Part shown: positions 1,592 through 35,916 of the stretch, in pieces | How positions within the stretch are numbered: the first letter of the stretch is position 1 | Layout of the letters: each line of letters opens with the position of its first letter | Virus record (IMG/VR): IMGVR_UViG_3300028430_001052 | From: a virus | Strand: one strand, 5' to 3' | DNA length: 39,800 bases | Program-made: the position numbers and the translations under genes | Notes under the pieces: generated by a model | What the model was told of the DNA's origin: nothing | Seen by the model: only the letters and a program-made list of their open reading frames with translations | Databases searched by the model: none

Positions 1592-1774
1592 CTACATAAC
1601 AGGGTGCTTTTCGATCCACAAATCAAAGAATTCTGTCTCATTGATAGTTTGCATACAATAGCGTTTTGCTTCCTCATATGAGGCGCACACGGCAACAACC
1701 TGGTCGTGTTCATGTGAGTCGATTCCTAAGACTACATAGACCATTGAAGGGATATCTTTAATTGATATTAGCAT
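1592..1774 (-). CDS. Small hypothetical protein (60 aa); its last 18 codons lie in a 55-bp repeat
   Basis: ORF is tightly packed behind rusA with a 17-nt overlap. The C-terminus QTINETEFFDLWIEKHPV is duplicated at 37737-37835. Confidence 0.45.
   Translation of the reverse strand: MLISIKDIPSMVYVVLGIDSHEHDQVVAVCASYEEAKRYCMQTINETEFFDLWIEKHPVM
1599..1653. repeat. 55-bp perfect direct repeat, copy A (partner at 37744-37798)
   Basis: ACAGGGTGCTTTTCGATCCACAAATCAAAGAATTCTGTCTCATTGATAGTTTGCA is identical at both loci and in the same orientation. Confidence 0.9.
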
Positions 1775-2252
1775 GTTCAGCCTCTTCTATTCTTATATGT
1801 TCAGCGATTGTGTTTAGCAGTGCATCATAATCTGGTACAGACTGCTCTAGTTCTTTTACAAAGATAATGGTTTGCCCTTCGTTCAAGTTACAGAGTGTTT
1901 TACTTCTAAGAAGCCATGTGATACGCGCGTCGTCATCCCACAAGACTCCGTTGAGAGCATCATTAAGAAACTTTTCAAGGTTATCTCCATCAGGCTTTTT
2001 TATATGCGGGAAGAGGTTTTGGAGCGCTCGCTTTCTTGCTGATAGAGCTTTTGGAGCAGGAATCCGATAGTGCGCTATCACAAGTAGAGGCCCTGTCAGA
2101 AGTGGGAGGTTGTTTTTTTCTAGGTGTTTCTTCACAAACAACTTCGTTTTCAGCATTCCCTTGCAACTCGGGTTGTATGTTCCGTGTCTTCCTAGCCTCC
2201 ACGACCCCTTTGCTTTTGGTGTGTACGGTATTGTGATTTTGTAAGTAGACAT
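1758..2252 (-). CDS. rusA: RusA-family Holliday junction resolvase
   Basis: Contains ITIPYTPKAKGSWR...GPLLVIAHYRIPAPK...HIKKPDGDNLEKFLNDALNGVLWDDDARI, with the RusA catalytic Asp cluster present. Confidence 0.75.
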   Translation of the reverse strand: MSTYKITIPYTPKAKGSWRLGRHGTYNPSCKGMLKTKLFVKKHLEKNNLPLLTGPLLVIAHYRIPAPKALSARKRALQNLFPHIKKPDGDNLEKFLNDALNGVLWDDDARITWLLRSKTLCNLNEGQTIIFVKELEQSVPDYDALLNTIAEHIRIEEAEHANIN

Positions 2253-2751
2253 ATTGGTCCCATTTCATGAATTGAAAAACAGTTCTCGGATTCGAGCTGT
2301 AAAACTTTTGCACGTCGATTTTAACGACTTGACGGTAGGAGTTGATGAGAACGTGGTGAAGCATCTCTAAAAAAGAAAGAAGGTAATCGCACAATTCATA
2401 AGAATAGACTGCAGGGACGGTATCGCTCCGGAGGTCATTCAGCTTGATATTAGCGTTCTGTGGAGGAGTCACATAGAATCGCACGATTACCACAACTGGT
2501 GTGTGGGTTTTGTAATAAGAGCGGAAAAAAGACTTAAGCAGAGATTTCCACTTCATATCACGAAAAAATTGTACCGATCGAGTTCTAGACCCGACCGTGT
2601 ACTTGATACTATAGATGAGAGGCTCGCCTGGTAGTACAAGCTCTGCATCTACAGCACCGGATTGCAGGATTTTTTGGTTTTTAATGATTTGCTTTAGTCC
2701 CAAAACGCCCACCTTAACGAACAAATTGCAACTGAAACAAAGCACAAACAC
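1990..2751 (-). CDS. RusA-like paralog with degenerate catalytic residues; start (GTG) uncertain, and the 3' 263 nt overlap rusA out of frame
   Basis: Contains LVLPGEPL...VVVIVRFYVTPP...ELCDYLLSFLEMLHHVLINSYRQVVKIDVQKFYSSNPRTVFQF. This follows the RusA layout, but the D..DN and DD motifs are replaced. The tail after FMKWDQ is low-complexity. Confidence 0.45.
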   Translation of the reverse strand: MFVLCFSCNLFVKVGVLGLKQIIKNQKILQSGAVDAELVLPGEPLIYSIKYTVGSRTRSVQFFRDMKWKSLLKSFFRSYYKTHTPVVVIVRFYVTPPQNANIKLNDLRSDTVPAVYSYELCDYLLSFLEMLHHVLINSYRQVVKIDVQKFYSSNPRTVFQFMKWDQYVYLQNHNTVHTKSKGVVEARKTRNIQPELQGNAENEVVCEETPRKKQPPTSDRASTCDSALSDSCSKSSISKKASAPKPLPAYKKA

Positions 2752-2784
2752 ATGGAAAAGGCGATAAGCACATCAAGGTGCTTG

Positions 2785-3024
2785 CTAAAATTTCTTAGTA
2801 GGCTCATATTCCTCCGCAGTAGACATGATTTCATCTGAAATTTTACAAATCAGCTGATCTAGGCTGGTGTTTACTATCTTTTTTGCTTCTTCCTCAGCAA
2901 TATCCATTACATACTCACACAAGGTCATCCACGAATCAAAAGGGTGAGCTTCTCCAACTAGATGATGGTTCAGCTTGTATTGGATTCTCTTTCCTTTGAT
3001 AGGCTTGAGCGTTCGATTGGCCAT
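2785..3024 (-). CDS. Small acidic hypothetical protein (start uncertain, possibly the internal Met)
   Basis: ORF only. It overlaps the upstream ORF by 89 nt if the first ATG is used. Confidence 0.3.
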   Translation of the reverse strand: MANRTLKPIKGKRIQYKLNHHLVGEAHPFDSWMTLCEYVMDIAEEEAKKIVNTSLDQLICKISDEIMSTAEEYEPTKKF

Positions 3025-3331
3025 TCTTGTCCCCTGGTTTCATGTCTTTTAATGCTAGCAAGATTGCTTCTTTGAGTTGGTCTAAATAAGCTTTGTCTAG
3101 ATAGCTAACTAATGGAATATATTCAGGCTTTCTGCCATCTGAGTAATTGACTTCTTTTTGGGGGAAATTCACCCAACGATTGTCGCCTTGGACGAAGTAA
3201 CGACAATCCAAAGTCTTTCTTCCATAAGGATATTCTACGAGAGTAAAGAACGCTTTTAGAGCGCCTTTATTTACCTCGCGATATTGTCCAACTTCTATTT
3301 CGCTGGCTGTATTTCCGACTTTAACTCTCAT
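2936..3331 (-). CDS. SpoVG-like putative nucleic-acid-binding protein
   Basis: VNKGALKAFFTLVEYPYGRKTLDCRYFVQGDNRWVNFPQKEV parallels SpoVG VN.dGrmrAiasItlD..fvvhdIrVi.G.nGlFVamPSkr. Confidence 0.4.
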   Translation of the reverse strand: MRVKVGNTASEIEVGQYREVNKGALKAFFTLVEYPYGRKTLDCRYFVQGDNRWVNFPQKEVNYSDGRKPEYIPLVSYLDKAYLDQLKEAILLALKDMKPGDKNGQSNAQAYQRKENPIQAEPSSSWRSSPF

Positions 3332-34355: not shown

Positions 34356-34587
34356 ATCTTCTCCTGATTGTAAAGTCTTTATTTTACTCCCTCTCTAAAC
34401 TCTATTCTAAGTGTTATTTTATTGCAACCAACAGAATATATGTATACAGGAATACCGGAAAACAGATAACATAAAAAGCATGCAAAACCAACCTGTTTTG
34501 TGAAGTACATTGCACCGTTTAAACGCAACTTATGCACAGGGAAGCAAGTAGCTTTTGACAGGTGTTTAGCAGGTTGGAGCAGAAGAC

Positions 34588-34624
34588 AAAAAAAAGAGGC
34601 TACACCCGTGAAGATGATAGCCTC
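34588..34624 (-). terminator. Minus-strand intrinsic terminator upstream of terS
   Basis: GAGGCTA-15 nt-TAGCCTC is followed on the minus strand by T8. Confidence 0.5.
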
Positions 34625-34699
34625 ATGAAAACGAAAACAACCAGACTCTGGGCGTGTATGGATCAGATACTTTGCCCATGAAATCTACATAGGTATATT

Positions 34700-35014
34700 A
34701 TGCAAGAATTGTTATATTTGCAATTGCAGAATGAGAGAGAGATTTACGAGAAGCGTAAAGCAGAGGGCCGCACTGACTTGCTAGCATCTATGCTTCTCAA
34801 AAGAATTGAAAAAAGGATAAAGACTTTAGAGAGGTCGATAGATGCCAAGACAAAAACTAGGCAAAAAATCACTAAACTTGGATGTGCCAGCAGATTTGCA
34901 CGATATGTACTCAAAGCTTTGTATCGATCTTGGAATCACAAAAACAGATGGCATCGTTCAGTATTTGAGATATCTGCAAAAGCAACACTACAAGCACAGG
35001 CAGGTACTCAATGA
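34700..35014 (+). CDS. Coiled-coil small ORF whose 3' 173 nt overlap the RHH gene out of frame; the real extent is uncertain
   Basis: The first ~48 codons look protein-like (LQNEREIYEKRKAEGR...IEKRIKTLERSID). The remainder is R/W/K-rich, typical of off-frame sequence. Confidence 0.25.
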   Translation: MQELLYLQLQNEREIYEKRKAEGRTDLLASMLLKRIEKRIKTLERSIDAKTKTRQKITKLGCASRFARYVLKALYRSWNHKNRWHRSVFEISAKATLQAQAGTQ

Positions 35015-35057
35015 CACATCGCCTCCTGATTTCAAGCTGGATGCTGGAAAGCATTAA
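34842..35057 (+). CDS. Ribbon-helix-helix protein upstream of the recombinase
   Basis: KSLNLDVPADLHDMYSKLCIDLGITKTDGIVQYLRYLQKQ. AGAGG lies upstream of the ATG. Confidence 0.5.
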   Translation: MPRQKLGKKSLNLDVPADLHDMYSKLCIDLGITKTDGIVQYLRYLQKQHYKHRQVLNDTSPPDFKLDAGKH

Positions 35058-35916
35058 TGCGTTTCTGGCACAGCTGACACTAAGCAAAAGCGCACCTACA
35101 GTTGAAGCATATAAATATGATGTTGGCAACTTTCTTCAGTATTTGAATGAAAGAAAAGTACGGAGGATGTCCTCAATCAAGCCAAACCACATCGTGGAAT
35201 ATCTGAGCTATTGCAAAGCTAAAGGAAAAAGCGATGCTAGCATCAATAGGTATTACATGGCGATACGCGCTTATTGTCGTTACTTAAGACGCAATAAACT
35301 AGTCGGCTTCGATCTTACAGAGGATATTACTCCCCCACGTAATAACCTAAAAGCACCGTATGTTCCTACGCAAGAAGAAGTGGCTAGAATCTTGTCTATG
35401 CCTAGTTCAAAAACCGAATCTGGAGTCAGAGACAAAGCTATACTAGAGCTATTATACTCTTCCGGTTTAAGGGCTTCTGAGCTATGTGATTTGCAGCTAG
35501 AAGACTTTAAGGAGAACTGTGTGCTGGTTAAATGCGGGAAACGAAGCAAGACACGCACGATTCCAGTGACAGATAGCGCATCAAAAGCGATCCAAGCCTA
35601 CATAGAGAAGTACAGAGGAAGAAAAGCTGGATGTTTGTTCTTGACGGTGCTCAGAAAAAAACTACGCAGACAGCTTCTCTGTGTAATTGTGAGTGACTAT
35701 GCCAACAAAGCTGGAGTCGAAGGAGTAACAACGCATACTCTAAGGCATGCATGCGCAACACACTTGCTCGATCAAGGCGCAGATCTTCGCTTGATTCAAG
35801 AGGTGCTCGGCCATAGCTCGATTGCTTCGACGCAAAGATACACGCACCTCTCCAGCAACAAGATGCAAGAGATGTTTAGACAGTTTCACCCAAGAAAGAG
35901 CCAAGAAGAAAATTAA
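35041..35916 (+). CDS. XerC/XerD-type tyrosine recombinase
   Basis: N-terminal SAM-like domain (TVEAYKYDVGNFLQYL). Catalytic motifs are GLRASEL, HTLRHACATHLL and LGHSSIASTQRYTH. ATG 35041 is preferred over 35011. Confidence 0.85.
   Translation: MLESINAFLAQLTLSKSAPTVEAYKYDVGNFLQYLNERKVRRMSSIKPNHIVEYLSYCKAKGKSDASINRYYMAIRAYCRYLRRNKLVGFDLTEDITPPRNNLKAPYVPTQEEVARILSMPSSKTESGVRDKAILELLYSSGLRASELCDLQLEDFKENCVLVKCGKRSKTRTIPVTDSASKAIQAYIEKYRGRKAGCLFLTVLRKKLRRQLLCVIVSDYANKAGVEGVTTHTLRHACATHLLDQGADLRLIQEVLGHSSIASTQRYTHLSSNKMQEMFRQFHPRKSQEEN

Follow-up and report, generated by a model that had tools for sequence, protein, structure and literature searches.

A circular podovirus-type genome of about 40 kb that carries plasmid-type partition, Rep-like and toxin-antitoxin genes

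Phage-plasmids of the P1, N15 and SSU5 groups unite a virion module with partition genes, addiction modules and a site-specific recombinase on a circular replicon; P1, for example, carries ParAB, Phd/Doc and Cre. Among plasmids, ParF/ParG of TP228 and par2 of pB171 represent the type Ib partition systems, in which a small ParA without N-terminal helix-turn-helix (HTH) domain is combined with a very small downstream partner and helically phased repeats upstream of parA. Some Cluster A mycobacteriophages are kept extrachromosomally by means of parABS, a swappable cassette that replaces the integrase. Plasmids of the Chlamydiaceae and of environmental chlamydiae encode a helicase (pGP1), ParA (pGP5) and recombinases (pGP7/8), while the only chlamydial phages known to us are small single-stranded DNA (ssDNA) microviruses (Chp1, Chp2, phiCPG1). 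Here, we describe an element that shares features with several of these systems, the uncultivated virus genome (UViG) IMGVR_UViG_3300028430_001052 from IMG/VR, a stretch of 39,800 bp that is referred to as the window in the following. With moderate confidence, the window can be regarded as a complete genome, fit for packaging, of a temperate phage of podovirus type that has plasmid-maintenance genes and belongs to a large uncultivated family of ~40-kb phages. Whether it is a plasmid prophage that is maintained as a circle we judge to be evenly balanced against all other readings taken together, and this is the reading argued for below. Tailed phages with plasmid maintenance genes are already known as a kind, and the sequences are already deposited as IMG/VR UViGs; no characterization of the relatives deposited there was found.

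The full extent of the element is as follows:

1-39659, no strand assigned: complete circular element (141-bp terminal repeat, junction-crossing assemblies and a 39,659-bp JGI contig)

The window ends in a direct repeat of 141 bp (bases 39660-39800 equal bases 1-141) that represents the k-mer overlap of a circular assembly (MEGAHIT contig ena:ERZ27247995:k141_2937992), and the circle hence measures 39,659 bp. The junction is spanned internally in independent assemblies with other start points (L012 and L007), and one JGI contig carrying the same element has a length of exactly 39,659 bp. In at least ten independent assemblies, nucleotide identity amounts to 99.9-100% outside the insertion sequences (IS), with all genes intact. 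A first-pass annotation of this DNA had proposed one circular unit with a virion set and a plasmid-like set of functions, which is borne out by the terminal repeat, the crossed junction and the profile matches given below. Its delimitation of this unit (1592-35916) proved too narrow, as a HigBA pair (803-1511), the IS and cargo genes (36155-481, across the origin) lie outside this span on the same circle.

The virion and packaging module is made up of the genes listed next. Core and accessory counts given here and below refer to 13 near-complete relatives that were rebuilt from paired loci.

26962-28293, minus strand: large terminase TerL (PHROG phrog_2, 7e-26; 80-89% identical in relatives)
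23631-25604, minus strand: P22-like portal (Pfam P22_portal, 1.2e-53; PHROG phrog_156, 4.6e-59)
21064-21819, minus strand: putative scaffold (by position, directly upstream of the capsid gene; kept in 13/13 relatives; without family match)
20104-21048, minus strand: major capsid protein of the N4-gp56 family (NCBIfam TIGR04387, 203.5 bits at a cutoff of 60; PHROG major head protein, 8e-42; 88-94% identical across the family)
9595-20088, minus strand: head-decoration, tail, internal-virion and fiber genes (PHROG tail protein and tail fiber matches; Gp53-like_C)
19426-20088, 18913-19311, 17999-18913, 17402-17989, 15117-17402 and 14641-15117, minus strand: open reading frames (ORFs) of this block
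14117-14632, 12725-14113, 10968-12731, 10580-10921 and 9595-10578, minus strand: further ORFs of this block
33927-34355, minus strand: 142-aa family-core gene (12/13 relatives; match to a PHROG of unknown function, 3e-4)

Thus, the hallmarks of a tailed phage (TerL, portal and major capsid) are all present according to PHROG, Pfam and NCBIfam, and all structural ORFs are intact and conserved in the relatives. For the virion set, the first-pass annotation was correct with respect to terL, portal, capsid and fiber. Its "terS-like" (33927-34355), "tubular-like" and "scaffold" genes exist as well, but their functions were assigned from position or weak matches only; the 142-aa gene has no Pfam or NCBIfam match, which leaves a TerS role putative. 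Within the tail and internal-virion block, a weak match to P22 gp7 (0.0018) stays below the Pfam cutoff, the fiber tip is C1q-like (1.7e-5), and the PHROG match to a "major tail protein" spans merely a small domain of a 220-aa protein. Neither a tape-measure nor a sheath gene was matched by Pfam or PHROGs. Judging from its genes, a podovirus type is a reasonable assignment, and the nearest capsids from cultured phages are those of podoviruses. Among these, Bacillus phage Pascal and Paenibacillus phage API480 (~40-45 kb) share the capsid family, a similar genome size and the lack of tape-measure and sheath genes, whereas their capsids are just 26-28% identical and their hosts are different. We know of no partition, Rep-like or toxin-antitoxin (TA) modules in these two phages. 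The portal and the capsid do not exceed 23.5% and 32% identity, respectively, to any deposited phage record, the capsid finds 27-29% identical counterparts in only five PLSDB records, and neither half of the genome, structural or accessory, found a megablast match in INPHARED or PLSDB. No endolysin, holin or spanin was recognized with Pfam on all called genes and PHROGs on the ORFs of unknown function. A 64-aa lipoprotein-like ORF (7073-7267) is the sole candidate for a small envelope-related gene.

In addition to this module, the circle encodes a partition cassette:

30491-31147, minus strand: small, type Ib-like ParA ATPase of 218 aa (Pfam AAA_31, 1.3e-20; CbiA, 3e-16; both above threshold)
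30224-30451, minus strand: 75-aa putative centromere-binding partner, possibly of the ribbon-helix-helix (RHH) type, 40 bp downstream of parA
31167-31250, minus strand: centromere/operator-like array of five RCGCAWW boxes that ends ~20 bp upstream of the parA start codon
30475-30503, minus strand: pair of further RCGCAWW boxes (30503 and 30481; 22-bp spacing) in the interval from parA to the 75-aa gene

ParA features a deviant Walker A motif (KGGSGKT) and begins right at this motif, without N-terminal HTH. On the parA strand, the boxes of the upstream array are located at 31250, 31228, 31206, 31195 and 31173, i.e. with spacings of 22, 22, 11 and 22 bp, and they form the densest cluster of this motif in the window (5 per 130 bp versus a mean of 0.15). 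The phased repeats that had been noted at the par locus in the first reading could thus be confirmed. The proposed RHH partner of ParA held up only in part: a small adjacent gene does exist, while its fold is weakly supported by a PHROG Arc-like repressor match (0.0046), a Pfam Arc match (0.09) and a single-sequence AlphaFold2 (AF2) model with two C-terminal helices after an extended segment (predicted local distance difference test, pLDDT, of 52). The layout corresponds to type Ib, with a small ParA lacking the HTH, a small gene downstream and repeats upstream of parA. By analogy with these systems, the upstream array would serve as both centromere and operator. It differs from the described type Ib systems in that ParA is 43-50% identical to any ParA in PLSDB (best matches on plasmids of Deinococcus, cyanobacteria and Bacteroidota), that the partner has no significant family match and that the predicted cassette resides in a phage genome. 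With an intact ParA, an adjacent partner gene and phased boxes, the cassette looks functional. Homologues of the 75-aa gene adjoin the ParA gene in three relatives (L017, L030 and L034), while in a fourth (L060) the stretch downstream of parA is truncated because the locus ends there. All four display their own, differing short repeats (ATGTG/CACAT-type) upstream of parA, as noted by eye and without statistical test; such differences would be in keeping with a centromere that co-varies with its binding protein. In L030, the par cassette lies on the opposite strand.

Further plasmid-like functions are a Rep-like gene and two TA pairs:

25876-26940, plus strand: Rep-like winged-helix protein, between TerL and portal on the opposite strand (PHROG DNA-binding protein, 2.5e-11; replication initiation protein, 2e-9)
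803-1511, minus strand: HigB (Gp49/RelE-like, 1134-1511) and HigA (HTH_37, 803-1141) (Pfam Gp49, 2.2e-21; HTH_37, 2.3e-22; above cutoffs)
7278-7843, minus strand: HicA toxin (7586-7843) and HicB antitoxin (7278-7592) (Pfam HicA_toxin, 1.1e-11; HicB, 1.9e-18; above cutoffs)

Both HigBA and HicAB, which had been predicted earlier, are present as adjacent toxin and antitoxin genes that pass the Pfam cutoffs. For the winged-helix Rep gene, the picture is mixed. The gene is present with the PHROG matches listed, and it also finds Pfam HTH_36 (0.0026), but no Rep family of Pfam or NCBIfam was matched above threshold and no iterons were detected around the gene, where only a 24-nt AT-rich inverted repeat (25618-25676) was found. 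Taken together, the circle contains a complete virion and packaging module along with a plasmid-type partition system, the combination expected of a phage-plasmid. A place in one of the known phage-plasmid groups (P1, N15 or SSU5) was looked for and not found, as the element is unrelated to any INPHARED or PLSDB record. It deviates from these groups by its podovirus-type structural genes and by the small type Ib-like ParA with a 75-aa partner instead of P1 ParA/ParB.

Several indirect lines of evidence argue for maintenance as a circle. Exact copies of the proteins were recovered from 43-52 blocks of the sequence collections (JGI, ENA, NCBI and Logan; ~50 assemblies), with no contig above 50 kb (44.4 kb at most) and no recognizable host flanks in any of these ~50 assemblies. 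For 39 of the best 120 among 330 helicase clusters, the longest contig measures 35-44.4 kb, and this upper value is not exceeded in the 120. Likewise, a scan of JGI metagenomes with the recombinase gave only contigs of ~39-40.5 kb or short ones. The near-100% identity across assemblies would be more readily expected of an element with stable inheritance than of a lytic population that evolves freely. Moreover, the Rep-like gene, the two TA pairs and a transposed IS with target-site duplication (TSD) lend support to long-term residence in cells. In a plausible life cycle of such a plasmid prophage, the injected, terminally redundant DNA would circularize with the help of the ERF annealase and the exonuclease, whereupon an XRE-type repressor may silence the lytic genes. 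The circle could then be replicated by the phage helicase and the Rep-like protein, while the 75-aa protein would bind the phased boxes and recruit ParA for segregation of the copies. Multimers would conceivably be resolved by the XerD-like recombinase, and cells that have lost the element might be killed or arrested by the two TA pairs.

The enzymes invoked in this scheme are encoded by the following genes:

1758-6892, no strand assigned: replication/recombination module, every gene of which occurs in 13/13 relatives
1758-2252, minus strand: RusA (Pfam RusA, 5e-15)
1990-2751, minus strand: second RusA-like ORF (PHROG RusA-like, 1.2e-5)
2785-3331, 4673-5110 and 5227-5463, minus strand: core ORFs of the replication module
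3816-4727, minus strand: DnaB-C-type replicative helicase (Pfam DnaB_C, 2.6e-26; 13/13 relatives at 67-84%)
5674-6255, plus strand: PD-(D/E)XK exonuclease (Pfam PDDEXK_1, 4.5e-7)
6218-6892, plus strand: ERF annealase (Pfam ERF, 3.2e-17)
32562-32960, minus strand: excisionase-like double HTH_17 protein (PHROG "excisionase and transcriptional regulator", 1.6e-7; Pfam HTH_17)
33204-33458, minus strand: XRE-type repressor (PHROG transcriptional repressor families down to 8e-13; Pfam HTH_3)
34700-35014, plus strand: ORF upstream of the recombinase gene and co-oriented with it
35011-35916, plus strand: XerD-like tyrosine recombinase of 301 aa (Pfam Phage_integrase, 1.3e-40; Phage_int_SAM_1, 3e-14; HxxR..H..Y motifs intact)

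The recombinase consists of a SAM_1 and a catalytic domain only, according to Pfam, which agrees with the earlier description of an Xer-type enzyme without arm-binding domain. It scores 269 bits with the NCBIfam model of XerD (cutoff 329.6) and 241 with that of XerC (cutoff 335), and its closest relatives are XerD/XerC proteins of Firmicutes (32-42%); it is hence Xer-like by sequence, but not a bona fide XerC/D. Features of a lambda-type integrase are largely missing, as there is neither an arm-binding domain nor a tRNA-associated attP, while an excisionase-like gene does exist. Scans of the window for tRNAs and with Rfam revealed no tRNA, tRNA-like attP or regulatory RNA beyond a single chance-level match. 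No k-mer near the recombinase gene, downstream or toward the terS-like gene, is shared beyond 3-6 of ~20 relatives as a common recombination site would be, and inverted repeats nearby are unremarkable.

A number of observations weigh against a plasmid prophage. Integrating phages are classically equipped in the way seen here, with a recombinase in the family core, an excisionase-like gene and an XRE repressor, and circular contigs of ~40 kb are equally expected from a lytic or induced, circularly permuted phage. ParA reaches 4.7e-49 and 166.7 bits with the NCBIfam model ParA_partition, just under the equivalog cutoff of 180, and the RHH fold and Rep function are putative, as would be any recombination site. 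ParA occurs in just two of the 13 relatives, and in 4 of ~40 related contigs if the motif KGGxGK[ST] is used for the search; the Rep-like gene is found in just one or two relatives. By these counts, ParA and Rep are not required by the family as a whole. Furthermore, a 242,368-bp long-read contig from an Acidobacteriaceae bin carries, no more than 828 bp from its end, a relative with 73% identical portal and 91% identical capsid (L006; CAWDQB010000068.1, 828-22777), which might represent a prophage integrated in a host of another phylum. Finally, cargo genes are located beside the recombinase gene as at prophage ends, with a gap between recombinase and RusA genes of 5.5 kb here versus 0.4-1.9 kb in relatives.

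Hence, the element might instead be an ordinary integrating temperate phage, in which the XerD-like protein acts as integrase and the double-HTH_17 protein as excisionase, while the circles stem from virions, from replication or from excision. As morons, ParA, Rep and the two TA pairs would then serve, for example, a transient carrier state or the exclusion of other elements. Besides the points just listed, the presence of the recombinase in 12/13 relatives speaks for this explanation. Yet, no integrated copy was detected in ~50 assemblies, 120 helicase clusters, 37 + 26 IMG/VR loci and the metagenome scan with the recombinase, and neither a tRNA-like attP nor a conserved site near the recombinase gene was found. 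The Xer-like score and the missing arm-binding domain of the enzyme also fit poorly, and there would be no need for an intact par cassette with its phased boxes. We consider integration a rather unlikely, though serious, alternative to the plasmid prophage. In the L006 relative itself, frameshifts divide TerL into 3-4 ORFs, other cargo in the form of genes for a metallophosphoesterase and a short winged-HTH protein is situated between TerL and portal, and RtcB and an RNA ligase are encoded upstream. The length of its contig corresponds to ~6 x 40.4 kb.

Still less probable, in our estimation, is a virulent or chronically replicating phage without stable lysogens, whose plasmid-like genes would serve the productive cycle or competition. 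Contigs that are always genome-sized and the absence of par from most relatives would suit such a phage, and without a recognizable lysis cassette its release could be unconventional. In contrast, a repressor, a recombinase, two TA pairs, an IS with TSD and surface-modifying cargo are typical of long-term cellular residence, and near-100% nucleotide identity over many unrelated samples fits vertical maintenance better.

The history of the plasmid-like genes becomes apparent from the family to which this presumed plasmid prophage belongs. IMG/VR contains 37 relatives by portal (72-89% identical) and 26 by helicase, mostly on contigs of 38.5-41.5 kb, and the helicase defines the above-mentioned 330 clusters in a large protein collection. 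The core that is kept in the relatives comprises the structural module, a headful-type TerL, the 142-aa gene, helicase, two RusA-like genes, exonuclease and ERF as well as the XerD-like recombinase (12/13). The second RusA-like ORF, which directly precedes RusA with ~260 nt overlap in another frame, is present in 13/13 relatives and is not called on public contigs. HigBA, HicAB, a fused glycosyltransferase/methyltransferase gene, the IS elements and two small cargo paralogues were found in none of the 13 relatives; a 369-aa cargo protein has one weak match (30%) among them and distant homologues on contigs of ~37-40 kb. The comparison identifies helicase and recombinase as genes of the phage family, and partition, Rep and addiction functions as recent additions of this lineage. 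Therefore, the plasmid set of the first-pass annotation is present gene by gene, but it does not form a backbone: par, Rep and TA genes are accessory, and helicase and recombinase belong to the phage core. In this respect, too, the element differs from P1, N15 and SSU5, as par and rep are not group-defining here. Compared with the Cluster A mycobacteriophages, a recombinase is kept beside ParA, and family and host are unrelated. Accessory insertions occur at four sites, i.e. the TerL-portal gap, the fiber-ERF gap, the early region and the recombinase-RusA gap. Despite ~9 kb of lineage-specific genes, the genome has the same size as those of the relatives, so that the element seems to keep within the headful limit and to have stayed packageable.

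The combination of helicase, ParA and recombinase had been likened to the backbone of chlamydial plasmids. A specific homology could not be found, and the likeness amounts to a functional analogy. The same three functional classes occur in both, possibly in the same host phylum, whereas ParA and recombinase have their best matches elsewhere and helicase and recombinase are phage-family core genes here. Plasmid DnaB proteins, those of Chlamydia and Simkania among them, all share just 23-30% identity with the helicase (Simkania pSn, ~26%). In the acidobacterial plasmid pPfer1 of Paludibaculum fermentans (NZ_CP063850.1, 1984-7649), genes for a DnaB-C helicase, a toprim protein, ParA, a tyrosine recombinase and a TA pair stand in a row. 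As this plasmid of the Acidobacteriota has the trio too, it is generic rather than specific to chlamydiae.

The lineage-specific genes include an IS and several cargo genes:

38298-39659, plus strand: 5' part of an IS66-family element, which continues at 1-481 (total 1,843 bp)
1-481, plus strand: 3' part of this element, followed by an IS982-like transposase fragment (470-751; Pfam DDE_Tnp_1_3)
36155-36556, plus strand: 133-aa cargo protein adjoining the recombinase
37869-38261, minus strand: 130-aa cargo protein, paralogue of the former
36587-37696, plus strand: 369-aa DUF6861 membrane protein (Pfam DUF6861, 5.9e-8; DUF6861/glycine-zipper region)
8060-9544, plus strand: glycosyltransferase family 2 (GT2) and FkbM methyltransferase fusion, N-terminally anchored (Pfam Methyltransf_21, 9e-18; Glyco_tranf_2_4; NCBIfam fkbM_fam; hydrophobic N-terminus)

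At either end of the IS66 element, 8 bp of the target are duplicated (CATTCCTT at 38290-38297 and 482-489), and its terminal inverted repeats of 15 bp (GTAAGTGCTCATAAA) match perfectly. Its transposase (551 aa, 38435-431 across the origin; Pfam DDE_Tnp_IS66) is an intact ORF in L012 and L007, and tnpA/tnpB genes are absent from the element, which is thus of the single-ORF type. Transposase, terminal repeats beginning with GTAAG and the 8-bp duplication agree with membership in the IS66 family. While the other ~37 kb are 99.9-100% identical, the IS66 region varies between assemblies (96.5-99.5% at the nucleotide level versus L007 and L012), and many assemblies break within it. Further IS66 copies with 91-96% protein identity are found on collapsed contigs of ~2 kb (94.6% nucleotide identity in the aligned set). 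This points to several diverged IS66 copies in a co-occurring, presumably host, genome. A 59-bp direct repeat (1599-1657 and 37744-37801, 98% identical), which copies the 3' end of a 60-aa gene (1592-1774), flanks a 3.46-kb block composed of the 130-aa cargo paralogue, IS66, the IS982 fragment and HigBA. The arrangement suggests that the block was acquired as a single piece through recombination.

Regarding the cargo, the GT2/FkbM fusion looks like a surface-modification gene. The 369-aa protein exhibits two neighboring hydrophobic segments (71-94 and 99-118), a pairing that resembles chlamydial inclusion-membrane proteins. Together with its homologues (n = 7), it shares the invariant, U-box-like motif DF(V/I)CxITxD(I/V)PEYPVFSP..(F/Y)EKxxIE. 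Pfam and PDB sequence searches gave no U-box match, and the AF2 model of the protein has a pLDDT of 48, with values below 50 in the motif region. The eukaryote-directed role that the first-pass annotation had suggested for the cargo could not be confirmed from these searches and this model. A PADLOC scan of the accessory genes returned nothing meaningful. In one assembly (L011, 14728-19634; JGI 3300028429, Ga0307118_1237114, 44,406 bp), the IS66 ORF of the element runs, at window position 1, into 4.9 kb of other DNA with a guanine-cytosine (GC) content of 39.9%. The joined DNA contains a resolvase, IS5 and a diversity-generating retroelement with reverse transcriptase, bAvd and a pair of template repeat (TR) and variable repeat, whose mismatches are nearly all at TR adenines. 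An F-box-like domain in the target protein of this retroelement (378 aa) narrowly misses the Pfam threshold (2.4e-4). The 4.9 kb may derive from the host, from a variant of the element or from chimerism.

For the host of the element, the associations of its genes make an IS-rich environmental member of the Chlamydiota, similar to the Parachlamydiaceae, a probable candidate. A relative of the phage (L005) is a 5.3-kb contig in a metagenome-assembled genome (MAG) of the Chlamydiales, and the 369-aa cargo protein is 63% identical over its full length to a protein from a Parachlamydiaceae MAG that is likewise encoded beside IS66. A 66% homologue of the IS66 transposase occurs in several copies on a 2.28-Mb contig, with a chlamydia-specific Pfam family (CT_504-like) nearby. 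For the glyceraldehyde-3-phosphate dehydrogenase encoded on this contig, PDB 6ok4 is the second-best match; the search gave no organism for this entry, which we take to be the enzyme of Chlamydia trachomatis. A 55% homologue of the transposase is found in a Chlamydiia MAG, adjoining type III secretion genes. The tetranucleotide comparison that had been proposed as a host check points in the same direction, with mononucleotide-normalized correlations of 0.81-0.87 to chlamydial DNA versus 0.41 to an acidobacterial plasmid. The GC content of 41-45% also contrasts with ~63% in the acidobacterial control.

On the other hand, the comparison comprises only three controls, and the host clues as a whole are bin labels of short contigs, homologues at 55-66% identity and composition, which lessens the weight of the chlamydial assignment. 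The host could conversely belong to the Acidobacteriota or another phylum from soil or freshwater, the chlamydial labels being due to mis-binned short contigs. L006 on its 242-kb contig of an Acidobacteriaceae-named MAG supports such an origin. With a GC content of 45% and correlations of 0.61-0.67 with all controls, its composition is ambiguous. In addition, the contigs of L005 and L092 are short (5.3 and 3.5 kb), so that their binning is unreliable, and the IS66 and cargo homologues in chlamydiae are just 55-66% identical. As structural proteins with 73-91% identity are unlikely to occur across two phyla, one of the two host labels must be wrong. A non-chlamydial host is at odds with three independent chlamydial associations, with the chlamydial chromosome that harbors several copies of the nearest long-contig IS66 homologue, with GC content and tetranucleotide usage, and with the F-box-like protein, a eukaryote-type domain, encoded on the DNA joined to the element in L011. 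It thus appears unlikely, albeit by no means negligible, and a chlamydial host is preferred.

Within the searchable literature, no tailed phage or phage-plasmid of chlamydiae was found; one paper mentions unclassified viruses that are predicted to infect Chlamydiales. Tentatively, and with somewhat less confidence than for the plasmid prophage as such, the element and the at least 330 helicase clusters may constitute the first family of tailed double-stranded DNA (dsDNA) phages of Chlamydiota. These phages would exist as circular 40-kb episomes in obligate intracellular bacteria, and the present lineage would be a genuine phage-plasmid by which IS elements and cargo for membrane or surface are carried from one environmental chlamydia to another. 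A tailed dsDNA phage of 39.7 kb would differ profoundly from the tailless chlamydiamicroviruses with their ssDNA genomes of ~4.5-6 kb, even though the host phylum is possibly the same.

Chlamydiae are obligate intracellular bacteria with limited genetic tools, and the interest of the element would be considerably higher if the host assignment is true. In this case, it could provide a route for horizontal gene transfer, as it carries an intact IS, TA pairs and surface-modifying genes. The compact par cassette, the Rep-like gene and the recombinase might be developed into a vector backbone, and the element would offer a natural system to learn by what route a tailed phage gains access to bacteria whose replication is confined to a eukaryotic vacuole. 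Irrespective of the host, the addition of partition cassettes to a conserved phage chassis of fixed size bears on the origins of phage-plasmids.

Two further early genes are located downstream of the partition cassette:

29420-29674, minus strand: Cpn10/GroES-like co-chaperonin (Pfam; in about one quarter of relatives)
29668-30096, minus strand: DUF3310 early gene (Pfam; PHROG phrog_236, 1.3e-30)

The nearest homologue of the GT2/FkbM fusion on a long contig (44% identical) is a 950-aa fusion with extra GT4 domains (L106; CAYRUD010000014.1, 642 kb). Its gene is found two genes away from that of a TLC-type ATP/ADP translocase, which marks energy parasites with an intracellular life.

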